From contig CP075492.1 of the NCBI GenBank assembly GCA_021613535.1, positions 14,570,001 to 14,634,000 of the forward strand: a stretch of 64,000 nt of DNA, in the 5' to 3' direction. A program made the translations under genes and the position numbers. This document shows, piece by piece, positions 3,164-36,049 of the stretch; position 1 is the stretch's first letter, and each line of letters begins with the position of its first letter. Below the pieces are notes generated by a model. It was not told the DNA's origin, did no database searches, and worked only from the letters and a program-made list of their open reading frames with translations. Source of the DNA: Adineta vaga. Its lineage: Eukaryota; Animalia; Rotifera.

Positions 3164-3599
3164 AGAATAATTTCATATATAGAAGAGATTTAAGAGTATG
3201 GCATTTTCGCTTTTGTTTTTCTTTCAGACTCTTTTTTCCTTCATCACAGAGATTGTGTTATTGATAGAAATAATTTTTCTCAACAAACACGTGATTCTTT
3301 ATTGACATTTGTCTCCTACATACACAGGCAGAGGTGAGTTTTGTGTTCGTATTTACTTTAACATTTTTTTGTTACTATCTCCATAAAATGTAATTATAGT
3401 CTAGAATATCAGAGAAAATATTCATAAAAATATCACATGATATTTTAGTTTTCTGTTGATATCTATGACTTTCTATCTGATAATATGCAACCAGACGGAA
3501 GAAATACAGAAAAGATGCTCGCATATAAAAGGGCATAAATTTTTTCATTGGATTCATTACATTATAAAGCAGTGAATACTAGTGAAAAAAAACTAAATA

Positions 3600-5567
3600 A
3601 TGGGCAATGATATATCTGTATCGGAGTCCAAACAATCAGTTGTTAGTTTAACAAGTGAATTTATTCGTCAACATATGAAAAAGAAGAAAGTTGAAGATGA
3701 ACCTTTGATTTGGTTGGATAGTAGTATTCAAGAAAACGATGCAGATTTTCGCTGTACCATCGCTCAACTACAGAGAGTTGTCAACACGATAGGGACATTT
3801 ATTGCAGTTGATGATTGCATTGAATTTATTAAAACCATTGACAATGAAAATAAGATCAATATGATTGTATCAGGTTCACTTGGCGAACTAATTGTTCCAC
3901 AAATTCATGAAATGACACAAATTAATGCAATTTTTATCTTCTGTGGGAATAAAGAATATCATAGAAAATGGTCCAAGAAATGGTTAAAAGTTCGAGATAT
4001 TTTTACTGAAATTTCACCATTATGTGTAGCTATCAAACAGATTGTAAAACAATCTGAAGAAAATGCGATATCTATCAAATTTATGGCTACATCGGATAAT
4101 ACATGCAACAAAGAACTCAATCGAGTACATTATTCATTTATGTATACACAAATTTTAAAAGAAATTCTATTATCGATTCAATTCGAAAAGACACATATTC
4201 AGAGCTTTATTTCTTATTGTCGTCAACTATTCGCTGATAGTAAATATGAACTGGAGAACATTCGAGAATTTGAAGAGAAATATACAGAAGAATATTCTAT
4301 TTGGTGGTATACTCGAGAATGCTTTTTATATAAAATTCTCAATCGTAGTTTGCGACTTATGAATAACGATCTTATTATCAAAATGGGCTTTTTTATCAAT
4401 GATCTCCATCATCAAATTGAACAATTACATTCGAAACAATTTCACCAACAAAAACCTAACACAACATTTATTGTCTATCGAGGGCAATGTCTATCTCGAG
4501 TTGATTTTGAACAATTAAAAAAGACGAAAGGTGGACTTATGTCTTTCAATAACTTCTTATCCACAAGTAAAAATCGTCGTGCTTCTTTGGACTTTGCCGA
4601 AAACCATCGTAAAGATTCGAATATGGTAGGAGTTCTTTTCATTATGACAATCGATCCTTCGGCATCGAAAACACCATTTGCTTCTATTACGGATGATAGT
4701 TATTTTAAAAATCAAGAAGAGGAAATTCTCTTTTCTATGCATACCGTTTTTCGCACTCATGATATTCAATTAATTGATCAAGATAAACAACTCTTTCAAG
4801 TAGAATTAACATTAACTAGTGATGATGATAAAGATCTTCGATTATTGACAGAATGTATTATAGAAGAAACAAAAGGATCAAATGGATGGCATCGAATGAC
4901 TTTATTATTAATTAAATTAGGTCAAACGAACAAAGCTCAAGAAATCTGTGAAAGTATGCTCACTCAAACGACAGATGAAGCAGAACAAGCACATCTTTGT
5001 TATGCAATTTCGTATGTTAAAGAAAACAAAGAAGAGGATACGTTACAAAAAACAAACATTACCAAAGTTCCTCTAGATCGACAACTTTCTCTTTCTTCAA
5101 CCGGTCGTGATTCAATCGAGTCTTGTATCCAAAGTGGTACGGTATATTATGACATTCGCAAATATTCAATGGCACTTCTTTTCTATGAAAAAGCTCTTGA
5201 AATTCAACAAACATTGTTACCATCAAATCATTCCAAGGTAGCCATATCCTACATGAACGTCGGTAAAGTATATAATAAACTAGGTAACTATAGCAAAGCA
5301 CTTGTGTATCATGAGAAGGCTCTGAGAATTCAACGGCAAACACTACCTGATGTTCATCCTGATTTGGCCATGTGTAATTACCATATAGGTACAGTATTTG
5401 AGAATATGCTGAATTATTCACAAGCATTTTTCTTTTATGAATGTGCAGTAAATATTATGCAACATTTATTGCCGCAACTTGATTGTGATTTAAAAGAATG
5501 CTGGCGAAAAAGGCTTGAACGAGTACGAAAGAGGTGTAATTTTTGTAGTCGATATTTGAAAATGTAA
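3600..5567 (+). CDS. Receiver-like domain + ART + TPR protein
   Basis: Single ORF. LIWLD...IVSGSLG...IFIFC N-terminal domain; ART motifs VYRG, FLSTS, EEEILF; 42-aa kinesin-light-chain-like TPRs; N-terminus MGxxxS. Confidence 0.88.
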   Translation: MGNDISVSESKQSVVSLTSEFIRQHMKKKKVEDEPLIWLDSSIQENDADFRCTIAQLQRVVNTIGTFIAVDDCIEFIKTIDNENKINMIVSGSLGELIVPQIHEMTQINAIFIFCGNKEYHRKWSKKWLKVRDIFTEISPLCVAIKQIVKQSEENAISIKFMATSDNTCNKELNRVHYSFMYTQILKEILLSIQFEKTHIQSFISYCRQLFADSKYELENIREFEEKYTEEYSIWWYTRECFLYKILNRSLRLMNNDLIIKMGFFINDLHHQIEQLHSKQFHQQKPNTTFIVYRGQCLSRVDFEQLKKTKGGLMSFNNFLSTSKNRRASLDFAENHRKDSNMVGVLFIMTIDPSASKTPFASITDDSYFKNQEEEILFSMHTVFRTHDIQLIDQDKQLFQVELTLTSDDDKDLRLLTECIIEETKGSNGWHRMTLLLIKLGQTNKAQEICESMLTQTTDEAEQAHLCYAISYVKENKEEDTLQKTNITKVPLDRQLSLSSTGRDSIESCIQSGTVYYDIRKYSMALLFYEKALEIQQTLLPSNHSKVAISYMNVGKVYNKLGNYSKALVYHEKALRIQRQTLPDVHPDLAMCNYHIGTVFENMLNYSQAFFFYECAVNIMQHLLPQLDCDLKECWRKRLERVRKRCNFCSRYLKM

Positions 5568-5831: not shown

Positions 5832-6800
5832 TCAATTTATTTCTTTTTCTTCTTTATCAAACAAATCATTCACAGACTTGCAAAATTTTGCCATAGGATG
5901 TTCAGCCGGTAGTTCTAAAACTGCTAGTCGACAGAACCGTCGATAAAGTTCTCGACGAATCATTACCATTCGTTGAAGAGCAGCACGATCAACAGGACTA
6001 ATCCCTTCTTCTGATTCATATCCTTCAAGAAGCCATGTTGTATATAATTCTGAATTAGCTTGTGGTACTGCAGAATGATCAATAGGCGAACCAGATCGTT
6101 CTAATGACGTAACACCCCAGACAGGTGCTGATAAATCATAGAGAAACCACGATTGTTGCAATTGATCCCAATCAAACATGCATGGCATCATTAAAGTCGC
6201 ATCCCAATAATAATTGCTTGGATTGACATCACCATGAATGATTCCAAAATAGGCAGGATCTGTTACTGTTGCTTTGTCACGTTCATCAACTTCTACATTA
6301 GCTAGAACGCCTTCATGAAGTGTTGTCCAATGACGTGCTCGAGTAACAAGTTCAGGTTGTTCTTGAACGAAACGACGTGTTAATTTGTGTAATCGAGCAA
6401 ACCAATGACCAAGACCAACAACGATATCTTTGTTTGTCATCCATATCCAATCTGTGTAGACCACAGGTTCTCCAGTTGCATATGTAAACAAACAAAGAAT
6501 CAAAGAACCATCCTGAACAACAGCTGACGATGTGATAGAACTTGGAATAGCTCGACAAACTGGTAATTGATTTTTATGAAGATAATCCAATAGAATCACT
6601 TCCAATTGAGTGCTATCGAGTCGTTGATTTTTTGGATCAGGTGTAACACGTAAAATAAAACGTTCCGAATCAGTCTTATTTGCAAGAAATGTATGATTTT
6701 GTGAAGCTTTCAAACATTCACCTACATCGACATTCCAATGGTCGCGAGCAAGTCGACGAATTTGTTCAATATCAATAGGAATAGTTTCAAACAGTGGCAT
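5832..6800 (-). CDS. Aminoglycoside phosphotransferase / homoserine-kinase-II family small-molecule kinase (bacterial type)
   Basis: Intronless 322 aa with FILRV, ARLH, Brenner motif HGDVNPSN, and FDWD...YDL. Confidence 0.88.
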   Translation of the reverse strand: MPLFETIPIDIEQIRRLARDHWNVDVGECLKASQNHTFLANKTDSERFILRVTPDPKNQRLDSTQLEVILLDYLHKNQLPVCRAIPSSITSSAVVQDGSLILCLFTYATGEPVVYTDWIWMTNKDIVVGLGHWFARLHKLTRRFVQEQPELVTRARHWTTLHEGVLANVEVDERDKATVTDPAYFGIIHGDVNPSNYYWDATLMMPCMFDWDQLQQSWFLYDLSAPVWGVTSLERSGSPIDHSAVPQANSELYTTWLLEGYESEEGISPVDRAALQRMVMIRRELYRRFCRLAVLELPAEHPMAKFCKSVNDLFDKEEKEIN

Positions 6801-7423
6801 GTTTTATCTACAAAAGAGAGACGTCATCTTGACCTAGATATACACAATAAAAGGAAGAAGAAGAAAAATAAAATAACATAATAAGCATCATTGCGTTGAT
6901 CTTGTTTATAAATGTATGATCGAGAAAATATATGACAAATTTTCACCAGATTCAGTATTGCATCGAGCACAAGGGTAATAATGTTGATATTTTATATACA
7001 CGTTTCTTACGTAATTCTTTCTTATCTTACGAAAGAATAGAAAGAAACAAAAGATAATAATAAATATTTGTTAGACATTTACATCTAACTTAATCCTCTA
7101 TCTTCATATACGTGTCATTCGATAAATTTACATTTCTTTAAATCACAATGAAAATAATCATTGAATCGAACAAATAGTAATGGATCTTTTCAACAAACGA
7201 TCCGAAAATTGGATGATTGTTTTTTTGTTATGTTTAAATACATTCTATCTTACACCATAGTCATTGACTGTAAATTGTTTTCTTTCCAACTTATTGTCTT
7301 GGACTTTTCCACTTAACTGTGTTGGAAGAATTACAAATAGGAAGTAGTAGAATAGATAAAAACCAATGTATTCAAAAGAATTCCTTTAAAAAGTAAAACT
7401 ATTTATATTTTGTTGTACACACA

Positions 7424-7808: not shown

Positions 7809-10800
7809 TTAATAATTCAATTCAAGAAAAGGAAGTCTCTCAATTAGAATTCTATCCGTCAAAGGATCAGCGGCGAATTGAAACTGATTTTGATACTTTT
7901 CATAGATATTCATTGCTTTTTGTTTTGTTGTTCTCGCTGAATTTTGCTTGTTTTCAATCATATAAATCGTTGATAAACAATTATAACAAAGAAAAAGTGT
8001 TCCGGCATAACGTCGACAAACATTGACATTCAATTCAAATGCATAATCTGTATAGAAAACATCTCTCTTTTCCTCATATATATCAATAACTTCTTGATAA
8101 GATTTCAATGCTTGATTTCGATTGTTTGCATAGATGAAAGATGCGATTCTTAGGTGACATTCACCAATCTGTTCATCATCACGTGCATAGTTTTCTAAAA
8201 GAAATGGTAATAATTCTTGTCGATAGACGTTTTTTGCTTTATCGAATTGATTTCTACTCATATAATTTCTCGCTTTTTGTTTATAATCAGATACTTGTTG
8301 ATTGAGATCTGAACTCTCAGAAGAATTCATATCTGTAATTATGTTCATTGATTCTAGGTCAGCGAGTTCATTATAGGCAGTGGAAAGATGAGATAAATAA
8401 TCTAGACGATTATTTTCAATGAAATGAATCAGTTGAGAATAGATCTCAATCGTTTCATTGGGATTATCGATAGCAAATTGTTGACATTTGGTGATGATTG
8501 TATTGATTTGAGTTTGAATATTTTCTAGTTGATATTTAATCATAAAAGCGATTTGTTCTTGATAGACAAATATTGCTTGATCGAAATTCTTCTTTAATTG
8601 ATAGATCGAACTAATTTCATCATAGATTTTGAAAATTTTCGATACAAATTCATCTTGATCAGAAGTAGAATGAATATTTTGACGATAATCTATCAAAATA
8701 TGAATCATTTTATAATACAAATTAATTCCTAGATCATATTTTTCTTCAATTAAATATTCCGAAATGATCCGATGTTTCCAAATATGAAACATAAAATCAA
8801 TCTTATCATTTTCTATATAATGACCTGTTGTTGGATGATGACATAGAAAAATGAAGAGATGTTCATATACCTCAATACATTCATAGAATAATTTCTTTTG
8901 AAGAAATTCTCCAGCAATTATTTGATAAACATCAGCGATTTTCATCATATCAGTTGAATATTTAAATAACAATTCAATTAATTTTTGATAGATTTGAATT
9001 GCTATATGTAAATGTTTTGTTCTTATACAAACTTGAATAAAATTTGGTCGATAATGATCGATGACCATAGTCATTTGTGAAGTTAATGGATTGAGTATTT
9101 GTAAAATCAAATTAAGAAAAGCATCGTATGAATGAATAATTGATTCGTAAGCATCGTATTTACGAATTAATAATTTCCAAATTCGTTTCATTTGAGTGTA
9201 TAATATGAAAATATCGGTAGTATCATCTGACATGATCGTACAAAGAGTTTGGTAAATTTGAATCAAGATTTTGAAATCATCCGTTTGTTTGAAATGATCA
9301 ATTAGATGTTCTTGAACAATGGAAATCATTGTTTTCATTTGATTTGATCGATGTATTTTGTAAAGAGTAACGGCTCTTTCGTATGTCTTCACAGTTGAAT
9401 TCATATCTTTATGTTCGATCTGATAAAATTCTGCTAATTTTGTATAACAATACAAAGTATGTGAACAGATATAATTGTATTGTTCGAAATTTTCTAAAGG
9501 TTCTCGTAAATATGTTAATGTTGATTCTAAATCATTGGTTTTCTTATATAAATGTGCGATATAACAATATATATTTTCATCATTACAATAACCGACATAA
9601 TTGTATAAACGATTTAAATATGATTGAATAATTAAATGAAACTTTTTTTCAATAAAAAACAGATTTTCATTACAAATTTGACTAATATTCAACTTTTCAA
9701 AACCAATTTGTTGACATAATGAAATACTTTCTGATAATGCAAATTTCGCTTCTTCAATTTTCTTTTGATCATAATATAGAGCAGCTAATTTCAATTGGCA
9801 ATAGACCATTTTCTTTCGTAGATCATTTTCAGTTTTTACTCGAGTATCAAATTGTTTATCATAGAATTCCAATGCAAAATGTAAAGGTTTCAAATATTGA
9901 AAAAATGTATCTGAAATTTCAACCGATTTAGTTTCAATTTCATTACTATCAGTACATAATAACTCTGATATTGGTTCGGATCGATCAGTTCGTTGCTGTT
10001 GATAACATTTCAACATACCTTGATAACCAATAGTGAGATTCTGTAAATCTTCGAGATGATATTTACAGCATAAACGAATGATTTTTTCATAATAATCAAG
10101 TGATTGATTATTTGAATATCGATAAAGTATGGCAAGACGTTCATAACATTGTAATGTATAAAGATAATATTGATAATTAGAAACATAGGATGAACATTGT
10201 TTTTCAACTTTTTGAAAATAATCAATGGCGATAAATCGACACGATTCATTATCATAGCGACGCGATAGAAAATCATATTGATAATTAAATGATAAATAAC
10301 CTGTAATGATCGATGTACGATATTTTATAATATCATCTAGACCAAGATCAAGAAATTGCTTCCAATTCTTCCAAATTCGATTATGTTCTTCAGCTGTTGG
10401 ATTAATAACATGTGTTCCCGATTCTGCGATTGTCATACATGTATGACAATGAAAATCTGTTGTATCACGCATTTCACAATCAACAGATTCTTTGTACATA
10501 TTCCATGCGCATTGATTTTCCCCTCTTTCTTGATAAATACGTGCGATATTAATCGAAGAAATATTTCGATAATTATCATACATCGCAAATTTATCAATTG
10601 CAATACAAGGACCATGATATGTATTCTTAGCGATCTTTTCATCGGTTAATTTGGATATGTCATAAGCTTGTTGATAATATTTTAACGCTTCGAAGTATAG
10701 TTTTTGTTTGTAGTAAACACCGCCAAGACAATTCAGAGTCGTGATTTTCCATTCATCATTTGAATGGTTACCTTTCAATAGTGCTTCAAATGCTAATTTA

Positions 10801-12347
10801 ATCGCGAGGTCGAATTGGTTTCGTTTCAATGCTATCCATGCTTGACCTGTGAGACATGTTGCCATATATTCATGGGAGAAAATCTGATAGAATGAATCGG
10901 CTTTTGAACGTGAAGAATGCATGGCTAGAGAACGATCGATAAGTAAATTTCCAATACGAATAATTTTTCCTTCGATTGTTTTCGTTGATTTTAATATTTG
11001 ATAATCTTTCATTGTCGGTATAGTTGAATCATTCTCATTGATCAATGTTAATGTTACAAGAGTTACAACCGTTTTCAACCCATTTTCAATTTTGATTTCA
11101 TAATTTTCATATATTCCATCGACGCGTAAGAATGAACCAACCATGCATAGAACTTCACATTCATCTTTAAATTTTGATTCTCCTTTATCTAACAGATAAC
11201 CTATGTCAGCAAATGGTTTTTGTTTTACTGATAGTTTATGATTGTATTGAATATCTATTTGAAAGATGACAGATGTCTTATTTTGATTGATAATTGGAGT
11301 TTTTTCTTTTGCATCCATTGCTCCAGCATACATCAATGCTACTTCTAATGTTAGGGTTGTTGAAAATAAAGTATTTATCGAGAGAATCGTGTTCAATGTT
11401 AAATTTGTCTTCATATGAATAAAGTCACTGTTATCTAATATGAGACCACGATAGACAGTAACCTGTGAATTATCGATATATATACCATATTCAATGTATT
11501 CCTGATGAATTTGATTTAATTGCTTCTGTAAATCCACAATATAGAAACGAATTGTTAGAATTCCTTGAATGTTTTGTTGACGCATAATTTTATTTAATAG
11601 ACGATAAACAAACGAATCGCGTTTAAACCATTGAATAGCTGATTCTGCTTCATAAGTATTTTCAAATTCATCGATATCATTCAATACAGTTTCATTAGCT
11701 CGATAATATATTCGACATTGTTCGATAAATCTTCGTTTTTCTTGTTCATAATCTTCTGAAGGTAAATCAAGTAATAAATCGATAAACAATGGACTCCAAA
11801 AATCAATAAAATAAGCAAATTTATTCAAACCATCAAATGATCGATCTTGTTCATATTGCTTTTTGAAAATTGTCATTGGTAATTGTGCATAGTAAATGCA
11901 ATTATAAACTTCCGAACATAGGTCATTGATTAATCGATGTAAATCTGTATAGATATTCACTATCTTTGAATAGTCATTCAATTGTTCTTCTGAAAAGTCT
12001 TGGAAAATATAAATCGAATGTAATACATGAAGATCATGAATATTTTGTAGAACATTTTGAGCATGTTTCTTTGGAAGAATGAGAAAGATTTTTTGATTTT
12101 CAGATGCAGAAGAAACGTATGTTTCACATTGTACTGGTGAATTATTATATTTTTGTAAAAAATCAGCACTATTCTCAATTTCAGATTCGATTGAATCCAG
12201 ATTTACATTGGCAATTGGGAAATCTTTTAGTAACCAAACGACGATGAATTTTTTGCTAAGATTTAAATAACTTGATGAACTCTCATCAACGGATTGTTGA
12301 TTAGTGAAGACATTTGTTTCGATAGAACACGGTGCAGTTTGCTCCAT
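7809..12347 (-). CDS. Giant single-exon receiver-like + ART + extended TPR/helical-repeat protein (1512 aa)
   Basis: FIVVWL...SIYIF N-domain; TVYRG, LFSTT, ECEVL ART motifs; ~1000 aa of TPR-like helical repeats. Confidence 0.85.
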   Translation of the reverse strand: MEQTAPCSIETNVFTNQQSVDESSSSYLNLSKKFIVVWLLKDFPIANVNLDSIESEIENSADFLQKYNNSPVQCETYVSSASENQKIFLILPKKHAQNVLQNIHDLHVLHSIYIFQDFSEEQLNDYSKIVNIYTDLHRLINDLCSEVYNCIYYAQLPMTIFKKQYEQDRSFDGLNKFAYFIDFWSPLFIDLLLDLPSEDYEQEKRRFIEQCRIYYRANETVLNDIDEFENTYEAESAIQWFKRDSFVYRLLNKIMRQQNIQGILTIRFYIVDLQKQLNQIHQEYIEYGIYIDNSQVTVYRGLILDNSDFIHMKTNLTLNTILSINTLFSTTLTLEVALMYAGAMDAKEKTPIINQNKTSVIFQIDIQYNHKLSVKQKPFADIGYLLDKGESKFKDECEVLCMVGSFLRVDGIYENYEIKIENGLKTVVTLVTLTLINENDSTIPTMKDYQILKSTKTIEGKIIRIGNLLIDRSLAMHSSRSKADSFYQIFSHEYMATCLTGQAWIALKRNQFDLAIKLAFEALLKGNHSNDEWKITTLNCLGGVYYKQKLYFEALKYYQQAYDISKLTDEKIAKNTYHGPCIAIDKFAMYDNYRNISSINIARIYQERGENQCAWNMYKESVDCEMRDTTDFHCHTCMTIAESGTHVINPTAEEHNRIWKNWKQFLDLGLDDIIKYRTSIITGYLSFNYQYDFLSRRYDNESCRFIAIDYFQKVEKQCSSYVSNYQYYLYTLQCYERLAILYRYSNNQSLDYYEKIIRLCCKYHLEDLQNLTIGYQGMLKCYQQQRTDRSEPISELLCTDSNEIETKSVEISDTFFQYLKPLHFALEFYDKQFDTRVKTENDLRKKMVYCQLKLAALYYDQKKIEEAKFALSESISLCQQIGFEKLNISQICNENLFFIEKKFHLIIQSYLNRLYNYVGYCNDENIYCYIAHLYKKTNDLESTLTYLREPLENFEQYNYICSHTLYCYTKLAEFYQIEHKDMNSTVKTYERAVTLYKIHRSNQMKTMISIVQEHLIDHFKQTDDFKILIQIYQTLCTIMSDDTTDIFILYTQMKRIWKLLIRKYDAYESIIHSYDAFLNLILQILNPLTSQMTMVIDHYRPNFIQVCIRTKHLHIAIQIYQKLIELLFKYSTDMMKIADVYQIIAGEFLQKKLFYECIEVYEHLFIFLCHHPTTGHYIENDKIDFMFHIWKHRIISEYLIEEKYDLGINLYYKMIHILIDYRQNIHSTSDQDEFVSKIFKIYDEISSIYQLKKNFDQAIFVYQEQIAFMIKYQLENIQTQINTIITKCQQFAIDNPNETIEIYSQLIHFIENNRLDYLSHLSTAYNELADLESMNIITDMNSSESSDLNQQVSDYKQKARNYMSRNQFDKAKNVYRQELLPFLLENYARDDEQIGECHLRIASFIYANNRNQALKSYQEVIDIYEEKRDVFYTDYAFELNVNVCRRYAGTLFLCYNCLSTIYMIENKQNSARTTKQKAMNIYEKYQNQFQFAADPLTDRILIERLPFLELNY

Positions 12348-12962
12348 TTTTAAAAGGACAAGAAAGCAACCTTATCATTCATCTATTCGCGTAAAAACTC
12401 TTTCTTTCTCTCCCCGATATGTAAAAGGAAGTAACAGAACAAGCTTTTTGTGTTCTCTAAGTTGGAAATTTATTTATTTTATTCTGTGCTACACAAATGC
12501 AAACAGAACATTCGTTCACAATATTGCAGTTTTTATTTATCGATGTGAGCTGTTAACAATACGGAAAAAACCAACGTATTGAAAATGTTTTAATCAAAAA
12601 GTGTCATTGATTTTACACTATTTCTTTTAGAAAAAAGAAAGATGTATATAACGTGTTTGTGATTACAAACTATTCTTTCTTTTCGGTGAAATAGCGAGTG
12701 TAAATCGACAAGCAAGTGAAGATTTCTATACGGCCAATAACGAAAAGAATTTCGTGGATAACAATCGCTATTAAATTAAAGCAATATTTATTCGAGAACA
12801 ACGACAGAAAAAGAAATAAAATAAAAAAGATAATGGTTGCTTGCGTCTTGTTTCGTAGTAAAAATGCAATAAAACTTGATCGTTTGGACTGTAAAACTTC
12901 ATTTTTCTTTAATCTAAATGTGAAGACTGATATTCATATATCTTTTATATGCAGATAACGAA

Positions 12963-13071: not shown

Positions 13072-16000
13072 ATGTCAAAGTGCTGGTCCTGCAACGCTCA
13101 ATTTAAAACAGTTGATGAAAAAGTAAAAGGTGATAATGGTTTAACATTCCATCGTACTTGTCTTAAAAAAATTCTCGAAATTAAACCAGAGATGAATGAT
13201 CAAGTATGTATGTATGAAACAAATTCTTTCGTTATTGTTGCTGTTTTCCCAGATTATCTAAAGAAAAGACGAGCGCAAAAAGAGTTTGATTGGATATAGG
13301 AGTTGCTGCGTGTGAAATGAATGCACACATCTTTCATATTCTTTTTTGATTGTTACTAGGAAGCGAGTATAGACTATTTACAGACAGCTGGGGAAAAAGG
13401 GAACTCATTCGTGCCTTCATCGTATACAAAACAAACGAATGAGGAGCAATGGGAATGCAAAGATTGCAGTACGAGAAATTCGCAATCAGAAAAACGGTGT
13501 CAATCATGTGCTAAACCACGATTTACTCGTCATTCATCGTTCATGAATCCATCGTATGCATCGTTCTTCGAAGAACCATCGGGTTACTCTCCACCGTTAA
13601 AATCGTGCAAAAACTCTGACGATGACACTCATATAAAACCAGTGAAAAAATGTAAATATTTGCAGCGAACATCTTGAAAATGAGAATGAACCAGTTTCTA
13701 CACATACCTTGATAACATCACTTTATGAAAGACTCACTCTTGTTTTTATATATTTACGCATAAAGGTAAAGGAGAACGTTACAATAATGGTAAACATTCG
13801 TACGGTAAAATTGATGAGGAAGACAACGAATCCAAAGATAATTCCTATGGTGACCCGCGTTCATTTCCGCGTCACAGAAGTCCATCACCATCTGTGCAAC
13901 CAAAATGGAAAGATTCTCAAGCTTCTTCTTCTTCGTCGTTGATTTCAAAAAATACAGACTTAATCTATATACCTGATTTACCATCCGATATAACAAATAA
14001 TTATGATTTGGAACAACTAATTTCTCGTCGAATAGAAGATCTTCTTCAAATCAAACTGAGAGGATTAAAATGTTATTCAAAATTAGGTATTGGCGTTATT
14101 CACATCACCGACAATAAACTTAAAGATCGTTTGTTGAACAAAGTTGGTAGACTTGCCTTAGATCCAAAAGATGGGAAGTATAATATTACATTTGTTGACT
14201 CAGTTGATCTTATTTCGTACGTTATTCTCGAAATAAATAAAGATTTTCAGAACGATGAATTGCCAAGCACTACGGAAGTTTCTCGTCGTTGGGTCGATAT
14301 GCACAAAGGAGAGACACCATTATCATGCGATGTACTCAATGTACAATTTCCAAATATATATCGTATTGCACCTGGTAGTTTAGATGAACTTGTTAATACA
14401 TCGTACAATGGAGTTTTTCGAATCAAAGATTTCCTCGGTTGTATTTATTATTGTGCTGATTGTAGTTTTTTCGAGGATTTATCTCGTTAAATTACAAAAC
14501 GCAATTTACAAGATGCTATTGCGCTTGCTATCGGACAAACAGATCTTCCATCAACTGCACTCTACGTTCAAATTCATAAAGAATCCGCTACTGCTTGTGT
14601 TATTTCAGCTAATATGGCAAGATTATGGTCAACAAAAAGTTTCATTACTATCGATAAGAATACATTGCAAAAGAGAATCAAACTTGCCTGTCGATTAATT
14701 GTGCATCCAATTCCTAAAGCATTTTCCATTCAAAGTATTATTAAACATAAAGAATTCCGAAATACAGTTACATATCATAAGCTCACTGGTGATCATCTCA
14801 TTTTGGAATTATCAGATAGGTCTGTATTTGACCAATTTTTAGAACATGGAGCACTTCGTCTCGATGATGATCATATCGCACATATGAATCTTTGCAATAC
14901 TTTAAATAATCCAGATGGAGGTGAAATCGATGATGATACATGGTATGAAACAGAAATGTTACAGATCAAACCTGATATTATGTATTTCGTAGCTAATCCT
15001 CAAAATAAAATCTTTCGTCTTCGTTGGAATTCGCATATTTGGAACGAAGAATTTAAGCGTGTAGCAACACAAAAACGTGATTCGGCTCATAGTAGTTCAC
15101 AGGACCATAAAAACCCAACATCGGATCAAATGCGTCATTTACTTCGTGTTACCGTCATGTTGAATACACTAGCTGTAATACAAGAACGAACTTTTATGAT
15201 TGACGAGCGTGAAATACAATTAAACTTGAAAAATGAATTAAAGACTGTCGTTTATGATCATGAATCAACACTTGAACGAAGAGAAAAATTAGCATTAACA
15301 AAAACACTCTATTCTCGAACAACGATCCGTGTTGTGCGTGGCGATTGTCTCATTGAATATGAACGAATGGTAAAGATGGGCAAACGACCTGTCCTGCTTA
15401 ATACGGCAAGTGCTACGAATCCTGGTGGTGGTTTCCGTAAAGGTGATGGAGCCCAAGAAGAAAATATTTTTCGTCGATCTGATTATTGTCGTAGTCTTGA
15501 TATTGGTCTCGATGAATTCCTTAAGGAGCGTGCTGATCGTTTACATTGCTCGTCTGATTGTCGTTTAGATCGTATATCTGATCCAAGTAATATGTATCCT
15601 ATGGATGAATTCGGTGCAATTTATACTACAGGTATTACCGTTTTCCGTCAACCCGAAGAAATGGGCTATGCTTTTATGGAAAAACCATTAGAAAATGTTT
15701 GTGCAATTGCAATGGCAGCTTATCGTGATCCTGAATTGAAAGGAACTTTATTAGCACCAAAATATGCCGTAGGAACAAGAAAAAAAATTGAAAATATTTT
15801 TGCTATTGCTCATCAACGTAAACATGATTGTTTAATTTTATCAGCACTTGGTTGTGGAGCATTTAAAAATCCGCCGGAACATGTTGCCAAACTTTTCTAT
15901 TCAGTTATCGAACAATATGCTGGCTTTTTCGACATGATTGTATTTGCTATTATTGATGATCATAATGCTGGTCGACTTCTTAATCCGGAAGGAAATTTTC

Positions 16001-19000
16001 AACCTTTTGCTAATATCTTAGACAATCGAACTGTAGAACCGACACTATCGATGAACAAAGCAAATACAATTATTGGTCCTTATCGATTATTAAGCGATGG
16101 TTTAACCGTTAGTAATGTAACAATATTTGATCAAACGCCTTGCTTCTATGGTGCGAAATGTACGGAAATGTATAATGTCAGTCATAGTAATCAATTTTCA
16201 CATCCACCTCTTTGTATTCAAGCCGCTATTGATGGAAAATGTAGAAAAATAGATGACATCGTGCATACAACTTCATTCATACATCGAAATCAATGCCGAG
16301 AGGGTGGTCTATGTCGACAAGTAAATGATGAAAATCATAATCGAGAATTTGAACATCCAGACTACTGTCCAGACGAAGGACGTTGCCAAAATGAGAAAGA
16401 CGACCATTTAAAACAATATCGCCACTTACCTCTTTGTGAAAAAGCACATAAATGTATGGAATATCAGAAGGAAGTCGTCAGTCATTGTAATAGATTTCGT
16501 TATTGTGCTCCACGTTGTCCCCACGGTGGTCTTTGTGTGATGTTTCATGACAAGAATCATTTATAAGAATTTCTACATCCGTTTGCTACTCCTTGTCCTC
16601 GAACACCTTTTGATTGTCCTTGTTACATCCAGTTATCAGGAGCAAAAGACATTCGGAGTATCGCGCAAATCACTCAAAGTCATTGTATAAAATACGCTCA
16701 TATATGCAAAAATGGTCGCAACTGTACGGATAATACACCCTTACATTTATCGAAAACTATTCATATTGCTCGTCAAGTATGTCCATACTTAGATAAATGC
16801 AAACAACTTGATGATGAAGAACATTTAAATTCATTTTCACATCCAAATGTTTCTGACATTCGACCAGCGTGTCGATATAATGATAAATGTCATGATCTTC
16901 ATAAATTTGATCACAAAGTTAGTCTTCGTCATCCATCAACTAGTGACAATGGTGTCGTACAATATTATGGTTCCAATGAGAAAACGGATTTTGTACAAAA
17001 TCAAAAAGATAATATTGCTTGTGTTCAGAAATATATCATCGACAATAAATGGACATTTCTATCACTAAAATCTATTCCGCGAGAAATTCTTAATTGGGTA
17101 CGTACTGTTCAACCTATTCATCGATGTAGTCCAATTATATTCGAATCTATACTTTTACATGGACATGTCATGAGTCGTGAATATATGGAACATTTAAAAG
17201 ATCCAATATTTGTTGCTAATTCCATTCTACATCATCCTCGAATACGACGAATCGAAGAACTCAATGCAAAAGCATGTGAAGATGACGCTAAACTATTTGT
17301 AACCGCACTGGTCGGGCTTGAATTTGAGAAGAATGGTTTTACAAAAGCAACTGTCGTACCACCAGCTGTATTGGGAGTTGAAGCAGGCAAAGATGCTACT
17401 TCCTATTCTGCAAAAGAAATCTACGAACATATTATGAAGAGAAAGGAAAATAGACTAACCAAAATGATGTCTGACAACCATCTAACTATTATACGAACGA
17501 AAGCTATTGAAATTGCACAATCGTCAATTAAACTTCATTCACATCCAGCTGGTATTGGTCATCTACCCGATAAAGCTCTAGGTAATGATAAACTTGTATT
17601 CAGTATTTTAGGACCACATTTAGGTCATTATTATGGTGATATAATTATTGTTTTTAAACGAGAAATTTTACATCATCCCGACGCAAATTATTCCATTCAA
17701 GCAGCAACGTCATTTGCTAGTGGAAATGCTTATAAATGGCGACCATGGTTAGGTACTGATTCTTGTGATCTTACTGAACGAATAAAGCATTATCATAGAA
17801 CAAAATTGCATGCATCTGTGCCAGGTTATGACTATGCTACTGCTTTAGAATTAATAGCACTTACCAATCTTCGTAAAAAAAGCACTTCAATGGATGTTAC
17901 TCTTCAAGAAATTTTGGATCAATGGGTCAGAACAGATTCACATCATAATATTGAAGCACATCTCCCACAATTAATTCCATTCGATTATATTGATCATATT
18001 TTTATACCAAAAAATCTTTTTGATGCACTTAGTGAAAACACACTCAAAACTATGGATGCTCTTTTTAAACATTGTACAACTCCTGTATCACATGATGGCA
18101 ATGCGAATCATGAGAAAGCACCATTCGGACCCACACCTACTACGAAATCACGAGAAGAGTATCAAAATGTCGTAGTGAAAGTATTACGTGATCGGTATAC
18201 GAATCATATCACTCGTTCGTTATTAAAGCCTATTCAAGGTGTAGTTATTACAATACCATCATCAAATTTTGATGATCATTATGTTTTACCTTTGACTATT
18301 CCCCAAGCATATGTACAAGATCGTATTGATAACCATCGTACACAAAAAGATAACATCGTTTGTATCTATTGGAAAGCTATGCATGGAGATATGATGTTAA
18401 CTTTATCCAATGAAGAAATTAGTTCGAGTGAAAGTCAACCAAATCTTCGTTGTTTAATCTGTTATATTGGTCCAAAACCTGCTATAAGTGATGATGATTA
18501 TCATGAGCATACTTCCTACTTAGCTGCTGCACATCCATTTCAACATGAAATGATTCTTAATAAAAAATCTTATAAAGCTAAATCGAATACATTCTATCTT
18601 GGATGTAATAGTAGTGATTTTATGACGTTTTGTTTACGAATTAATCGTTCAACAGCAAAAGTTATACTATCGCATGCTGGTCCTAATGGTATCTATAATC
18701 ATGAAGAAATATCTTGTACATTTGGTAAATCTGAACTTGATTTAACTAAAATGGAATTTATTCATGTTAGTGCTGGAATACATGCAGTACCTATTCGTAA
18801 TTTAATTATCTGTTTCGAAAAACAATCGAATATGCATCCAACATTTGATAAAGATTACAAGAGAGATACTTCTAATGTAACGGAAAAGGAATCTAATAAA
18901 ATTGATGATAATCCATCGAAAAAACCAGGATTTTTAGGAAAAATAGGAAATCTTATTTGGGGAAATAATGATACATCAATAAGAGCTTGTCCTGACAATG

Positions 19001-19499
19001 TCAATTGTTTAAAACAATATTCCAATGAAGCTAAAGAACATAATACTAAATTTTCGCATCCATGTCCTTATTCGGAACGATGTCGTGATAAAGATTCACA
19101 TCCTACGTATATTCATGAATTACATGACGTTTCTAAATGTCGAGATGATGAAGCATGCAATCAATTAGATGATCCTTTACATCGAGCATCCTATCGACAT
19201 ACAGGTCGACCTGATTTTCTTATAACATGTCGTCGACAAAAAGAATGTACAGATACGTCGTCTTATCATCGAAAAAAATATTCCCATGGAGAAGAAGTCT
19301 TCGAAATATTATTAACCACAATATCAAAAAGTATAGATAAACGTTCACTTTTTTTTCTTGAAAAACATTTTGATCTATGAGTTTTCTACTTTTTTTTCTA
19401 GTACCACTTAAACATGATGAACGAATACTATGTAAATGGGGACTTAATTGTTATAATAATGACGCTGATCATCGTGCCAGATTTTCCCATCCGAAATAA
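13072..19499 (+). pseudogene. Multidomain protein: Zn fingers + RRM-like region + bacterial-type PARG macrodomain (DUF2263/TIGR02452-like) + PBZ-like finger array + DarT-like ART domain + PBZ array; two in-frame TAA
   Basis: Exons 13072-13203, 13360-13651, 13766-19330, 19402-19499, all GT-AG and phase-compatible. ORFs 13894, 14614 and 17170 share one frame, broken only by TAA at 14488-14490 and 16564-16566. Motifs: RanBP2 finger WECKDC..N...RCQSC; PARG signature GGGFRKGDGAQEE and LSALGCGAFKNPP; repeated C-x5-C-x6/9-H-x5-H fingers. Confidence 0.8.
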
Positions 19500-20387
19500 T
19501 AACAATTTACACATTTTAATGATGATTTATAAACTTTTTTTCTTTTTCATTTATAAAATTTATTGGACTAAAAACTTGTTTTTTTCCACAGAAAGTTGCA
19601 GTCATGTATTTCTAGACAAACTGTAACGATGCAAAATGCTGATTATTTTTAGATATAATCATTTCTTTTTTTTTCTATCCAGAAGTTAGTAGCATATACA
19701 AAGTTTACTTGATAATCATTTTTTAATTTGTGATAATTTAATTCGATTCCAATTCACTTGAGAAAGTCTTTTTTTGTGTTGGAAAATGGTCTGGTTCAGT
19801 TTTCTGATGTGTCCATTACTCTGCAGTAGATCGACTTGGTTCTGACAAAATAAAAGTTCCAGCACCATAACAACATCGTTACAGCTTTGCCATTGTTTAT
19901 TCCACCGTAGACAGTCATATTCTCTACAACATACTGACTTATTTCCCAAATTCCCAGAAGACATCCCGTCAATGTTTATTCCATGATGTATGCACAGATA
20001 AACTGGGTAAATGAGAAAACTATATTCAACAAGATCACATACACAAATCTTCTATGAATTGAAACGAAGTATATTTTGTTATGCATTCGAAAAGAATTGA
20101 ATTTTGAGTTAAAATCTGTTGTTGATAATTGTTGTCGTTGCACACCAATGAAAGCATCGTGTGTTTTTTGTTGCCTCTCGGCAATGTTTTACTTTTATTG
20201 CGTATGATTCTTTTCGACGCGTTGAATACTTAAAAAGACAAACATAGAAGTAGAACAAAAAAAAACTTCGTCATCTTTTGTAAAGAACGAATTATTCTAA
20301 CAAATTTATTCTTATTCATGACAAAAACACAATACTATCTATTAATTTAATTGTATGATTATTAGAAGATAAATTTGATATTATATC

Positions 20388-21368
20388 ATGCAAATCGTCA
20401 ATATTATGGTAATGTTTATATTATTGGTAATATTCGTAGGATTCTTTATAGTTTATAGTAATCGTACAATTATAGAACTATCAACGAAAAATATCAAATC
20501 AACTTCAGTTACTATTATTCTTTATAATCGTGTACCAAAATGTGGTAGTACATTACTGATGAATATTTTCGATTCTTTATCGAAACAGACAAATGCATTT
20601 AAATTTCTTTCTGTATTTCCATATACTAAGTTCCATCGATTATCTGTTGAAGACCAATACAATTTAACAACAGATCTTCTTCAACAAGCATATGATGTTC
20701 ATCCTCAGTCAATTGTTTATGAACGACATTTCCATTTTATTCCTTTCATATCAACATCGAGTCATAGATTTTATTATATTAATCAATATCGTGATCCACT
20801 TGAACGTATTCTATCTGGTTATGATTATCGTCGTTATGCATGTGTTGTAATACGCAGTCCTAATCCGTGTAAATTGATAATTCCATCTGCACGAAATTTG
20901 ACTATGGATGAATGTGTAGCCACAGGTGATCCATCTCGATGTATTACAAATTCGTACGGAGTTCGTCCGGCAATTCCATATTTTTGTGGTCATTCATCGA
21001 TATGTGATGATACCATTAGAAATCCACTAAGTAAAGCGGCTGTTGCACTTTCAAAAGCCAATATCGAACGATATTTTATTCATATTGGTCTTATTGATTA
21101 TCTTGAAAATTCATTGGAATTGCTTGAATCTATTGAACCAACTATATTCGCTGGTCTTGTCGATACCTATATGAACAATTTTAAACGTCTTACAGTGAAT
21201 AAAGTACCTCGACAATATCGCTATGGTATAAGTAATGAAACACGTAAAACTCTTCTTCAATTACTTGGACCGGAGTATGAATTATACAATTTCATTCGTA
21301 AGCGTTTTTTTGATCATTATACTCGTGTATTTCATCGATTACCTATGAAAGCGCGTGAAATTGAATAA
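20388..21368 (+). CDS. Heparan sulfate / uronyl 2-O-sulfotransferase-like type II membrane protein
   Basis: N-terminal TM helix; 5'-PSB motif YNRVPKCGST; 3'-PB motif RDPLERILSGY; YFCG and EYELYNF motifs. Confidence 0.9.
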   Translation: MQIVNIMVMFILLVIFVGFFIVYSNRTIIELSTKNIKSTSVTIILYNRVPKCGSTLLMNIFDSLSKQTNAFKFLSVFPYTKFHRLSVEDQYNLTTDLLQQAYDVHPQSIVYERHFHFIPFISTSSHRFYYINQYRDPLERILSGYDYRRYACVVIRSPNPCKLIIPSARNLTMDECVATGDPSRCITNSYGVRPAIPYFCGHSSICDDTIRNPLSKAAVALSKANIERYFIHIGLIDYLENSLELLESIEPTIFAGLVDTYMNNFKRLTVNKVPRQYRYGISNETRKTLLQLLGPEYELYNFIRKRFFDHYTRVFHRLPMKAREIE

Positions 21369-28859: not shown

Positions 28860-31646
28860 TTAAAATGACATTTGTGATTGAGCTTTTAAGATGGCATCGT
28901 CAATCTTTGCCAAGTCAGGATGATCGAATGGAAAATGTTCAGAAAGAATTTCACGTGCTGTTTGAAGATGTTCCAATCCAGAAACATAATCTCCCCTTGC
29001 GCAACTTAGAATACCAAGATTATGAAGAGTTTTAGCCAATTCAGGATGCTTTGTAGGTAAAACCATTCTTTGAATGTCAAGAGCCTTAGTCAAATAAAGA
29101 TCCGCATCATAGCATTTACCCATGCCTAGAGAAATACTTCCCATATTGCAGTATGTTCGACCAATTTCAGCATGAGTAGGAGGTAGATGCATTTCTTGAA
29201 CACGAAGTGTTTTTTCTAAGTAGTCAAGTGCAATCAAACCATTTCCTAAACGAAATTCAGTATAAGCAATGTTACTGCACAAAGCAGCTATATCTGGATG
29301 AGTTGAAGATAGACTTTTCTCTTGAATATCAATAGCTTTTTTGTAGAAACGGTTTGCTTTGTCGTATTTTTCTTCGGTTTGATAGACTATACCAATAGTA
29401 TTATAGGTTCGAGCCCATTCTGAATGATCAGGTGAAAGAGATAATTTTTGCATATCGTAAGCTTTCTTAAGATAATCGTGTGTTTGAGAAGATTTAGCCA
29501 ATAAGTTGTAAGTGAAAGCAACGTTAATGTAGAAGACAGGTAATTTGAAATCAGTTGTTGATAGAGATTTTTCTCGAATTTCAATTGCTTTTAAATGATA
29601 TACAATTGCTTCATCATATTGTCCTAATGCCTTTTGTGATTGAGCAATATTATTATAAATTAAAGCCAAGGAGGAATGTTCAGATGAATGAACTTCTTTA
29701 AATATTTTCACTGATTTCTGATAGTAGTTAATCGCTGTTTCGTATTGTCCCATACAATGACTGATAACTGCAAGATTATTCAATGTACCACTTATATCTG
29801 AGTGAATCTCTGGAAGTGATCTTTTTTGAATTTCAAGGGCTTTTTTGAAATATCGATAAGCATCTTCACGTTTTCCTATTGTGTTATGAATCATACCGAT
29901 ATTATTGTAAATAAGAGCCAGATCAGGATGAGCAGGTGGTAATAAATTTTGAACAGTATCAAGTGATTTTTGAAAATATTCTAGTGCAGTCGGATAATAC
30001 CCCATTGAACTTTTAATCACTGCGATGTTATTATACATTGTAGCTAAATCAAAAGCATTGTATGTAAAAGATTTTTCACGAATTTCAGCAACGATTTCAA
30101 AAAATTCACAAGCGGTAGGATAGTTTCCTATTAATTCATGAATGACACCCATATTACAAAAAATATCGACTAGATCAATGTAATCATATTCCGGAGATGA
30201 TGGAGTTGTGTCAAGTATGCTTTGATAGTATGAAAGTGCAGTATTATGATCACCTTGGCCATGTTTGATTCCTCCCAACATCCTATAGGTTTGTAAGCGA
30301 GCATGCATATCAATTGATGTTGATTCCAAAATATTATTGCAAATTTTCTCTGCTATATCATAATGACCCATACGCATGAGAAGATAAGTAATAGATTTAT
30401 CTACGGAACCGATTCGAATTTGTTGATGCATATATTCGGTGACTCGTTTCAAAGTTTCATCATTCTCATTTGTTAATGTAAGATTCACTTGACAAGAATT
30501 CTCTGAAATATGTATGATTTTGGCAATATGAAAGATTGTATGCATTGAAAATAAAATCTCTTCTTCATCTTCATGTTGAGTAGTTTGTCCAATAAAAGCA
30601 AATGGTGTGGATGATATTGAAGGATCAATTTCAATGTGAAAACATAGTCCAACGAAACCTTTCGGTAAAGATGAACTAGCAGCAAACATAGAAGAAACTA
30701 TTTTTTCTTTACTGGTTGATAGAAAGTTGTTGAAAAATAAAAGACCTCCTTCATTTTCTGTTAACTTTTGAAAATCTTTCTTGCACATAAGTTGACCACG
30801 ATAGACAACTAATTTTTCTTTTAATTGTTGCTCTCCGTGTAATTTAAGAATTGTTCGATGAAGATCTTGAATATAGACACCCATGTGAACAATAGTGTCA
30901 GTATCTTGAGTTCGAAGAGCTTTATTAAGTCGTTCGTAGAAGAGTGGTTCTTTCGTATACCACCATAATGATGAGCGAGGAGGATTACCTTGTTCAAATT
31001 CCTTTAACACTCTTAATCTACTAGGTTCATTGGCATCTTTTGTACGAAGATAATTAATAAAATCTTTTTTTGCATTTGCATCATATTGTTTCTCTAATAG
31101 AAGATCTTTCAATAATTGTGAATACATAAATGATGCATCAAGTTCATTTTTCTTGTTTTTTGTTAATGGAGACATAAAACCAATTGGAACTAAATCATCT
31201 TCATACTTTCGAATGTTTTTTTTAAATTGTTGGCAAAACTCGGTCATATGAGTAAATGAACCTTTGATTTTTGTCCATTTATTTATCTTTAATTCATGAA
31301 TATTTTCTTTCTCATAATGAATATAGATCAGTTTAAGTTGAGATATATCATGAATTAATGGTATAAGAGTTTGAATATGATCTTTGCGTAGAATAAGACA
31401 AACTTTATCATTGCGAATATTAGAAAGAAAATCAACACATTCGTCAACACACTTGAATAGTTTTATGTCACTGACGATATCAGAAAATTGTTTCAATGAA
31501 TTTTCCATATTGGTTTGCAATTCATCTGAACACGTATTCAAATAAACGATAATCCATTTTTCGCAAATATCATATTTTCGGAAGTTGATGTTCTGAAATT
31601 TTCCAAACATTTCATCTGTACAAATAGAAAACGGATCTTGAAGCAT
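28860..31646 (-). CDS. Receiver-like domain + ART + long TPR array
   Basis: WIIVYL...LIYIH N-domain; VYRG, FLSTS, EEEILF; about 12 42-aa TPRs (HPDLA..YNNIG). Likely start at ATG 31646, just after an acceptor-like site at 31655. Confidence 0.9.
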   Translation of the reverse strand: MLQDPFSICTDEMFGKFQNINFRKYDICEKWIIVYLNTCSDELQTNMENSLKQFSDIVSDIKLFKCVDECVDFLSNIRNDKVCLILRKDHIQTLIPLIHDISQLKLIYIHYEKENIHELKINKWTKIKGSFTHMTEFCQQFKKNIRKYEDDLVPIGFMSPLTKNKKNELDASFMYSQLLKDLLLEKQYDANAKKDFINYLRTKDANEPSRLRVLKEFEQGNPPRSSLWWYTKEPLFYERLNKALRTQDTDTIVHMGVYIQDLHRTILKLHGEQQLKEKLVVYRGQLMCKKDFQKLTENEGGLLFFNNFLSTSKEKIVSSMFAASSSLPKGFVGLCFHIEIDPSISSTPFAFIGQTTQHEDEEEILFSMHTIFHIAKIIHISENSCQVNLTLTNENDETLKRVTEYMHQQIRIGSVDKSITYLLMRMGHYDIAEKICNNILESTSIDMHARLQTYRMLGGIKHGQGDHNTALSYYQSILDTTPSSPEYDYIDLVDIFCNMGVIHELIGNYPTACEFFEIVAEIREKSFTYNAFDLATMYNNIAVIKSSMGYYPTALEYFQKSLDTVQNLLPPAHPDLALIYNNIGMIHNTIGKREDAYRYFKKALEIQKRSLPEIHSDISGTLNNLAVISHCMGQYETAINYYQKSVKIFKEVHSSEHSSLALIYNNIAQSQKALGQYDEAIVYHLKAIEIREKSLSTTDFKLPVFYINVAFTYNLLAKSSQTHDYLKKAYDMQKLSLSPDHSEWARTYNTIGIVYQTEEKYDKANRFYKKAIDIQEKSLSSTHPDIAALCSNIAYTEFRLGNGLIALDYLEKTLRVQEMHLPPTHAEIGRTYCNMGSISLGMGKCYDADLYLTKALDIQRMVLPTKHPELAKTLHNLGILSCARGDYVSGLEHLQTAREILSEHFPFDHPDLAKIDDAILKAQSQMSF

Positions 31647-32438
31647 CACTATGTCTAAAAATACACATATTAATTTTATTAATGAGAAGAATTGTAAATC
31701 GTAGAAAATTCGATAGAATGGAGGGAAAACGAAGGGAAAAATGTATCGCCCATTATAAAACGTTTGCTTGTTATGAAGAACACGCAATTTTCAGGATTAA
31801 GATAACGAAATTTAGGTCGTTAAAACTTTATCGAGCGCTGATAAAATAAGAACAGAATTGAAAATAGTGTCGTTTATGACGTCAGTAAATAACTGACGTA
31901 AGCAGAACAAATAGCATTTGATTCCATGTGAATATACATACTTGTGAGTTTCTTTTTATTCTAAGGAATAAAGTCAATTTATATTCTGCAATACGTATGT
32001 TTCCAACAAAGTCTGAATTCCTTTGTCGCCTTCTATAACTATACAAGAAGGTGATGAATATACTGCTGTGTGAGTGCTTGTTTTATTGTACTTATAAGTT
32101 GATATTGACTATTTTATGAGTTTATTGTGAGCCTGTCTGCATGGCTCTGGAGTGATGTATATCAAAAAGAACAAAAAGGGAATCACTTCCCGTACTCTGT
32201 GTCAGACACACACATGTATACCGGGAAGAAAAAGAGAACAAAGAGAAAGAATGGTATCACAGATAGCATTCTTTCACGAAACAAACAAAAGGGATGACTG
32301 TAACACTCCATGAATCAGAAGGATGGGGAGGAATGTATCCAGACGTGACATGGTAGAGAGGAAGAGAGAAGAAGAATAGCGAGGACACTCGTCATCGCTG
32401 ACATGTATAGAATATGAATGAGAAAATGATCTGTTGGA

Positions 32439-35193: not shown

Positions 35194-36049
35194 ATCTAGA
35201 AAATGTTTGAATATATTCATTCATCATCAAACTTTACAGATTGATTGTCATAAATTATGAATATAATATTTGTTTGATATTGTAAACGAAATGCACGTGT
35301 GTAGCTACTGTATACGTTGAAGGATGAAACTATGTATATATAAAACGCAAAAAATACAATTGCATCGATATGTAAAATTGTTCAGGCATATCATAGCGAG
35401 ATTTTTTCTTTATACTATTGAAAGTAGATATAGAACAGATACAAAAAGAAGTGACTCGTTTTCAGATTTTATTTTAAATGTTATTGTGTTTCTAATTATC
35501 ATTCCGAAAAAGTTTGTCTATAATTCTTCGTGAGCAATTCTCAACAGCCAATCGTTTACAATCAAATCAATCATCTGGTAAAAAAATCAACATATTTATG
35601 GTCTATATAATACTGAATTTGATTATGGACATTTCATAATTATTGATGCATTTAGCTGATCTAAAAATGATTCTTCGAAGAACATATGTGTTTATATATG
35701 GAAACAAATATACGATAGAAAGCAAAAATGAGAGTCTTCAATTATATCAAGTGAACAAATCTAAAACTGAGAAATGACGGTGACATCATGTGACGAAATG
35801 AATTTATTTTTGAATACTAGCATTGTTTTTCATTCACAAAAATTGTGTTCTGTTTTATAACCCAATGAAATGGTGTGAGTATGCATACAAGGTTTATCTT
35901 CATTTGCACTCATCCTGGTTATTCTCATTGGATCGATGATAATCAAGGTGGAAACAATTTTTCAACTTCTTTTCGAAATATAGTTCCAGTTAATGCATAT
36001 AAATAAAAGCTAGTTGAATGAGCAAAATATATCATGATACCAGATTTTT

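Follow-up and report, generated by a model that had tools for sequence, protein, structure and literature searches.

A bdelloid rotifer gene joining a bacterial-type PARG domain and PBZ-like fingers to a predicted ADP-ribosyltransferase of a new family

We analyzed a 64,000-nucleotide stretch of the Adineta vaga genome (contig CP075492.1, positions 14,570,001 to 14,634,000; hereafter the window, in whose own numbering all coordinates are given). On its forward strand lies a gene that would encode, in one chain, a bacterial-type PARG macrodomain, fifteen PBZ-like zinc fingers, and a domain with the predicted fold of an ADP-ribosyltransferase (ART). Four exons (13072–13203, 13360–13651, 13766–19330, and 19402–19499, all +) give a 2028-codon model, and 1997 of its 2028 positions are identical to the database protein P0001 (A. 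vaga I4U23_015558); the introns were inferred from GT-AG sites and the annotation of I4U23_015558, not from RNA. Exon 1 begins with the ATG at 13072, exon 3 is a single frame, and exon 4 carries the last finger and the terminal TAA. A first-pass annotation of the window had read the locus as one frame of about 2,000 codons; the spliced model agrees with this, but in the window haplotype exon 3 is broken by two in-frame TAA codons, at 14488–14490 and 16564–16566. A candidate 57-base exon at 13253–13309 (+) was left out because it contains an in-frame TAA and is absent from the database model. This segment lies between good splice sites and is possibly a cassette, which could be a dead or a poison exon.

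The PARG macrodomain occupies 15136–16010 (+), and its signature is intact (GGGFRKGDGAQEE at 15427–15462, with the spacing GGG-x7-QEE, which fits GGG-x6-8-QEE). The domain matched Pfam PF10021 with E 2.9e-20 and 73.6 bits (cut-off 23.5) and TIGR02452 with 96 bits (cut-off 50), so the bacterial-type assignment of the first-pass annotation holds above both curated thresholds. D. radiodurans PARG (DrPARG) and T. curvata PARG (TcPARG) were matched with E 1e-13 and E 8e-12, respectively. These bacterial enzymes (T. curvata 3SIG and D. radiodurans 5ZDA-G) stand alone, whereas the rotifer PARG sits within a 2000-residue multidomain protein. Published work on DrPARG reports cleavage of poly(ADP-ribose) and no removal of Glu- or Ser-linked mono-ADP-ribose; since DrPARG spares these linkages, the rotifer domain is, by analogy, better read as a chain-cutter that would act on polymer than as an enzyme undoing mono-transfer to protein.

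Ten PBZ-like CCHH fingers follow the PARG domain at 16141–16932 (+), and five more lie near the C terminus at 18988–19490 (+), so that the two arrays flank the ART domain. PBZ fingers bind poly(ADP-ribose). The strict pattern C-x5-C-x5..9-H-x5-H is found in 10 of the 15 fingers, compared with a mean of 0.09 and a maximum of 2 in 2000 shuffles, and the fifteen fingers described earlier are borne out. Among them, one lacks the last His (the fifth of the first array, which has Tyr instead) and one has irregular spacing (the second of the C-terminal five); the sixth of the first array contains the second premature stop, and the last of the second array is encoded by exon 4. With the zf-CCHH profile (PF10283), the orthologues P0002, P0057, and P0059 scored above the Pfam cut-off, whereas the pieces from the window gave weak matches below it.

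Between the arrays lies the ART-fold domain, which belongs to an unnamed family (16969–18099, +). An AlphaFold2 model of this region, made with 52 sequences, has a pLDDT of 92.7 and includes a helical insertion of ~120 residues. In the VIA structure search of 48,161 chains, the top nine rows were all ART or Tpt1 chains (Z 9.5–12.1, rmsd 3.2–4.5, 108–215 aligned residues), and the highest unrelated chain reached Z 7.3. SopF came first (Z 12.1, rmsd 3.9, 213 aligned), followed by OspC3 (Z 11.3, rmsd 3.9, 207 aligned), CopC (Z 10.9, rmsd 4.5, 215 aligned), Thermus DarT (Z 10.8, rmsd 3.2, 168 aligned), a second OspC3 (Z 10.8), M. tuberculosis DarT (Z 10.2), Tpt1 (Z 9.8), Thermosipho DarTG (Z 9.6), and DarT1 (Z 9.5). 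The effectors SopF, OspC3, and CopC aligned over 207–215 residues versus 161–177 for the DarTs. The first twelve rows of a Foldseek search with the same model were also all ADP-ribosyltransferases, at E values of only 0.02–0.55, with no match at E ≤0.001. The ART fold proposed in the first pass for the region 17119–18010 is well supported by this modeling, which places it in the DarT/OspC/SopF/Tpt1 branch.

Sequence searches place the domain in no existing family. Identity to OspC3, CopC, and SopF is only 8–14%, and no family in Pfam, NCBIfam, or PADLOC matched. The DarT profile PF14487 gave no match at E up to 1 (and PADLOC none), the OspC profile PF06128 gave no hmmscan match, and hhalign to the fetched OspC sequences gave 2%. 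The PARP catalytic domain had no Pfam match in the window pieces or in sets of 14 and 36 homologues, and searches of PDB sequences with profiles A1 and A4 returned no ART, the best hits being unrelated proteins at E 0.088 and 0.035. Atlas look-alikes, of low recognition, were OspC (PF06128, 0.92), DUF3626, DUF3841, DUF5846, and DUF5863; viral look-alikes, all weak, included a DUF3626 phage protein and open reading frames of giant viruses. The domain is best taken as an ART family of its own, situated between the DarT and OspC/SopF groups and carrying the ~120-residue helical insertion. The DarT-like identity suggested earlier stands only in part: every motif quoted for it is present, the ART branch is shared, and the His and Glu are kept, but SopF, OspC3, and CopC match equally well or better, no DarT-type Arg is conserved, and PF14487 does not match.

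The ART domain is carried by 327 proteins, of which 235 cover all eight sites tested; the counts below refer to these 235. In the window, the conserved residues are His 17119, Asp 17569, Phe 17599, His 17941, Glu 17953, and His 17959 (+). The first-pass annotation had staked its transferase claim on the His and Glu, which are conserved in 230 and 232 proteins, and similar values were obtained for the loop Asp (234), the Phe (229), the E-x-H His (227), the Y-G Tyr (225), and the D-S-H His (229). The pattern is unchanged in the 40 most distant members. His, Phe, and Glu, which by spacing correspond to the strand 1 His, strand 2 aromatic, and strand 5 Glu of the diphtheria-toxin-like H-Y/F-E class, are located on predicted strands of the AlphaFold2 model, and two extra family-specific His residues are retained in the domain.

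Catalysis by CopC is reported to depend on H137-F183-E325 with D172 and D230, and OspC3 to require E326/H328. In the fetched OspC, D177, F188, and E326-Y-H328 have a spacing near-identical to that of the rotifer domain; the E-x-H was matched to OspC by hhalign and motif scan, the loop Asp (D172/D177) and the Phe by spacing. DarT is reported to need R51 (R52 in DarT1) and H119 (N104), and DarT1 also D54. No DarT-type Arg is conserved in the family: across columns −14 to +9 relative to the loop Asp, Arg never exceeds 23 of the 235 proteins, and the position of DarT H119/N104, four residues after the strand aromatic in a by-eye register, is Ala in 222. Conserved basic residues are few, with four columns at ≥60% R/K among 49 distant members. 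Relatives that might deepen the OspC profile were sought in GTDB genomes and none was found, which leaves four fetched OspC sequences and one DarT and makes these comparisons weak.

After the ART domain comes a module that was absent from the first domain list, a ConA/galectin/CBM66-like beta-sandwich of ~200 residues at about 18235–18828 (+; AlphaFold2 pLDDT 91.5). It matched galectin-8 in Foldseek (E 1.2e-4) and CBM66 in VIA (Z 11.6), with likeness to legume lectins as well; such a fold gives no information about the ligand. All 20 of the named full-length proteins from bdelloids contain the lectin-fold domain, as does 1 of 11 named protist proteins.

The N-terminal region is less clearly assigned. 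The CxxC..HxxC finger noted earlier in exon 1 (C-x2-C...F-H-R-x-C, 13081–13164, +) looks like a truncated RING because the paralogues P0010, P0013, P0019, and P0060 have a complete RING at this position. The RanBP2-type zinc finger of exon 2 (13441–13509, +) matched PF00641 weakly, with E 2.8e-4, below the cut-off. What had been called an RRM-like stretch resolves into two repeats (about 13948–14211 and 14455–14682, together 13948–14682, +) that are homologous to each other (hhalign 84%, E 8.2e-6); the RRM label comes from pattern only, as the repeats have no Pfam name and no usable Atlas match.

Searching for long relatives gave 135 matches among 883 candidates; PF10021 was present in 118 of the 120 listed, and the named relatives among the matches listed were from Adineta, Rotaria, and Didymodactylos. 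The annotation of A. vaga includes at least seven family loci. When 1.84 billion representatives were searched with a profile, 417 matches were obtained, of which 150 were listed. Eleven of 30 distant matches could be tied to species: Diphylleia rotans (four), Pharyngomonas kirbyi, Naegleria gruberi, a cluster with N. fowleri, Copromyxa protea, Arcella intermedia, Gefionella okellyi, and a transcriptome labeled as a red alga (possibly a contaminant). Transcript-derived proteins of Diphylleia, Pharyngomonas, Copromyxa, and Gefionella contain PARG, 6–15 fingers, and ART in the same order. These protist proteins, with all modules in order, speak against the pieces being separate genes; the single polypeptide proposed in the first pass and the intact orthologues for which it called are both found, in bdelloid paralogues as well as protist transcripts. 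The layout is not specific to animals; besides the intact bdelloid paralogues it occurs in protists of no fewer than four lineages: CRuM, heterolobosean, amoebozoan, and malawimonad.

The modules are coupled in most members of the family. In 220 of the 232 proteins with room for one, a finger is found no more than 170 residues upstream of the ART domain, PARG is present in 145 of 153 sufficiently long proteins and always precedes the ART, and the PARG signature and the ART H/D/E/H are kept together in 119 of 147 proteins longer than 1500 amino acids (near-duplicates included). Several protist members keep the ART but have a degenerate PARG signature or no PARG; the mirror image, an intact PARG signature with a degenerate ART site, was seen in P0162, P0165, P0169, P0171, and P0173. 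Elsewhere the ART is fused to GBP, Roc-COR-LRR, TPR, VWA, or RING modules. Examples of such fusions are P0198, P0234, P0230, P0259, and P0309 (LRR-Roc-COR, GBP, TPR, VWA, and a small GTPase domain), and P0096 and P0147 have a second, C-terminal ART of the arginine type (PF01129) besides the new one.

A quick unrooted tree of 62 rows, with P0228 left out, put the 24 bdelloid proteins on one side of a branch with SH-aLRT 99 and Diphylleia next (80). Many branches are long, and we claim no donor. Pattern scans of GTDB genomes and IMG/VR based on alignment A1 found no relative; these scans need close motifs, and the profile matches listed were 150 of 417, which leaves it unproven that bacteria, viruses, or other animals lack the family.

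The two premature stops (14488–14490 and 16564–16566, +) bear on the copy in the window. Stop alleles were read from contigs of four public DNA runs (X1, X2, X3, and X5) from four studies. At 14488, X1 and X2 have the sense letter and X3 and X5 that of the window; at 16564, X1 and X3 have the sense letter and X2 and X5 that of the window. Since stop and sense alleles both occur in public contigs, the two stops are likely to be real polymorphic alleles rather than assembly errors. Reassignment of TAA was rejected because of the sense alleles and because the gene itself terminates in TAA. The database gene model bypasses both stops through very short apparent introns that omit 17 and 13 residues, which is why the database shows an intact protein for a doubly nonsense haplotype. 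Such splicing was also rejected because orthologues retain the residues that the model drops; the block around the first stop is covered in 115 of 119 homologue alignments, and the omitted residues kept in homologues include a finger Cys and His in 118 of 119. From its sequence, the window haplotype would yield only a 382-residue fragment or be degraded. The window allele is predicted to be a null or a hypomorph, and the interest therefore rests with the family rather than with this copy. In all four DNA runs, a contig joint at 19424–19459, inside the last finger, jumps back 36 bases with 54 letters between; another allele or a paralogue is likely to have an additional terminal finger.

On the modeled fold, our verdict is that the gene family contains a new ART family in what would be a PARP14-like single-chain switch. 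We hypothesize that the intact protein is self-limiting: the fingers would dock it on poly(ADP-ribose), the ART would use NAD+ to modify a protein target with single ADP-ribose units, and the PARG would cut the chain, so that the protein would release itself and the PARG would serve as its off-switch. We give this reading a probability of roughly 0.4. The structural neighbors of the ART domain are single-transfer enzymes. A chain-docked mono-transferase is favored because of this and because the best three neighbors are effectors that act on host proteins. We infer that PARG and ART are catalytically active, that the fingers bind chains, that the acceptor is a protein, that events occur in this sequence, and that the protein serves in defense or stress. 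The defense role is suggested by what the ART is fused to, by the number of copies, and by the neighboring TPR-ART and AIG1 genes; a role in DNA damage in this desiccation-tolerant animal is equally conceivable.

Several observations weigh against such a chain-docked mono-transferase. No more than about 1.3 Z units separate SopF, OspC3, CopC, and DarT, so that the fold cannot pick out the substrate. The residue equivalences to CopC, OspC, and DarT derive from sequence spacing and not from residue-level superposition; the loop Asp may equally correspond to the essential D54 of DarT1, and at the position of OspC3 D231/CopC D230 the by-eye register gives Ala, with no counterpart. The motif-chain score was higher for the fetched DarT (z 4.0) than for OspC (z 1.7–2.5), for which hhalign stands at 2%. 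Most single fingers of the window fall below the Pfam PBZ cut-off, and some may therefore bind RNA instead. A nucleic-acid target would be a natural match for the RRM-like repeats, and human PARG is reported to decap ADP-ribosylated RNA. Four RNA runs gave scattered pieces, largely below 95% identity and likely from paralogues, with no GT-AG joint at the locus.

An unlikely reading, though the next to be weighed, is that the ART makes or extends ADP-ribose chains, so that one protein would write, read, and erase a single polymer without a PARP. This would explain most simply why a chain-binding array and a chain-cutter remain fused to the ART across supergroups, the bacterial-type PARG acts on chains, and the catalytic Glu is kept along with the two extra family-specific His residues; set against this, no structural neighbor in the top VIA rows is known to polymerize, and several homologues that keep the ART have lost PARG or carry a degenerate one. 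To our knowledge, no chain-forming ADP-ribosyltransferase exists outside the PARP family, and chain synthesis by this one, if true, would overturn the view that only PARPs polymerize ADP-ribose. It is similarly doubtful, though conceivable, that the family represents an old PARP-independent chain system of eukaryotes, in which the ART would build poly- or oligo(ADP-ribose), up to 15 fingers would read it, and the PARG would erase it, and that this system was retained by free-living protists across several supergroups and amplified in bdelloids as a defense or damage switch.

Rather less probable is that the ART caps RNA or DNA ends, at a phosphate or a ribose hydroxyl, in the manner of Tpt1, and that the PARG removes the cap. 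Tpt1 is among the top nine folds (Z 9.8), PARG is reported to reverse phosphate-linked adducts, and the N-terminal repeats resemble RRMs, but that label is unconfirmed, the few conserved basic columns described above (four at ≥60% R/K among 49 distant members) fit such a substrate poorly, and PBZ arrays would be unnecessary for the role.

The first-pass annotation had favored a fused counterpart of the DarTG toxin-antitoxin pair, which would ADP-ribosylate DNA bases and reverse its own mark. We regard this as improbable even though the DarT2/DarT1 fold matches (Z 9.5–10.8), the DarT-like first motif, the motif chain on the fetched DarT (z 4.0), and the parallel between the loop Asp and DarT1 D54 all speak for it. 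The Arg essential to DarT is not conserved (at most 23 of 235), and the H119/N104 position is Ala in the by-eye register. The reading is weakest in its eraser: the macrodomain is of the PARG type, whereas DarG is reported to be TARG1-like with a catalytic Lys, human PARG is reported to be unable to remove the DarT thymidine adduct, and the fetched 359-residue protein next to DarT has no PARG signature. With neither the conserved Arg nor a DarG-type eraser, the DarTG counterpart is unsupported. Of comparably low probability is an NAD+ hydrolase or maker of a small signaling nucleotide, triggered by chain binding and with no macromolecular acceptor, for which the Ala in place of the acceptor-side residue of DarT and OspC (by-eye register) and the likeness of the GBP and Roc-COR-LRR fusions to sensor-effector defense proteins might argue, but the solved structural neighbors are transferases and the large helical insertion suggests a docking surface.

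The preferred reading, a chain-docked mono-transferase with its own off-switch, has its nearest functional parallel in PARP14 (and PARP9/DTX3L), which is reported to combine transferase, hydrolase, and reader in one chain (PMC10499325; PMC10470015). The likeness lies in having these three kinds of module on one polypeptide, and in an immune or stress setting that for the rotifer protein would be suggested by its context. The parts differ: an ART of the DarT/OspC/SopF branch, with no PARP Pfam match, stands in place of a PARP domain, a bacterial-type PARG in place of a MacroD-type macrodomain, and PBZ-like fingers in place of reader macrodomains. The type III effectors OspC3 and CopC (ADP-riboxanases) and SopF are the best structural matches and share H-F-E, the loop Asp, and E-x-H, but the rotifer ART has no PF06128 match, no counterpart of D230/D231 in the by-eye register, and no ankyrin domain, and it is a resident eukaryotic gene fused to an eraser. 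DarT1 and DarT2 share the ART fold, a similar first strand/helix motif, the catalytic Glu, and a linked ADP-ribosyl hydrolase; the rotifer domain differs in that it lacks a conserved catalytic Arg, has Ala (by eye) where DarT holds the base, and contains a large helical insertion, and its eraser is PARG, not DarG or NADAR.

Part of the architecture has been described before. Perina et al. 2014 (PMC4245714), citing Slade et al. 2011, state that A. vaga has a PARG with several PBZ repeats; the organism and the PARG + PBZ layout are the same, and this is very likely the same family (B3G4H5 = P0037). In the available portion of that account, only PARG and zinc fingers are described, and no transferase, lectin-fold domain, or protist distribution. 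The first-pass remark that no described protein was known to have this architecture stands only for the ART, on which our literature search found no paper, subscription literature, including ART superfamily surveys, being outside that search. PMC3417536, PMC3482391, and PMC12957317, in the portions available, treat other ART families. The ART family, unrecognized by Pfam, NCBIfam, and PADLOC, would be a eukaryote-resident member of a branch that otherwise consists mainly of bacterial toxins and effectors. The family may account for the occurrence of bacterial-type PARGs with PBZ repeats in rotifers and protists, in that they include their own writer, and the PARP14-type single-chain writer-reader-eraser would here have been invented independently, out of unrelated parts.

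The rest of the window is rich in ART-TPR genes. Seven long TPR-repeat frames are present (7809–12371, −; 3597–5564, +; 28863–31790, −; 50504–52546, +; 54681–56312, +; 59141–61306, +; and 61613–63424, +), three of which have weak Pfam matches to ART exoenzymes or NAD:arginine ARTs upstream of the repeats, and an additional ART fragment lies at 928–1605 (−). Two frames, at 48000–48740 (+) and 56848–57510 (+), encode GTPases of the AIG1/GIMAP type, a family often linked to immunity. An APH-family phosphotransferase (5835–6803, −) and an S9 peptidase (33340–35220, −) are long uninterrupted frames that could have been acquired horizontally. A sulfotransferase frame (20379–21368, +) and an F-box frame (38883–40094, +) are also present.

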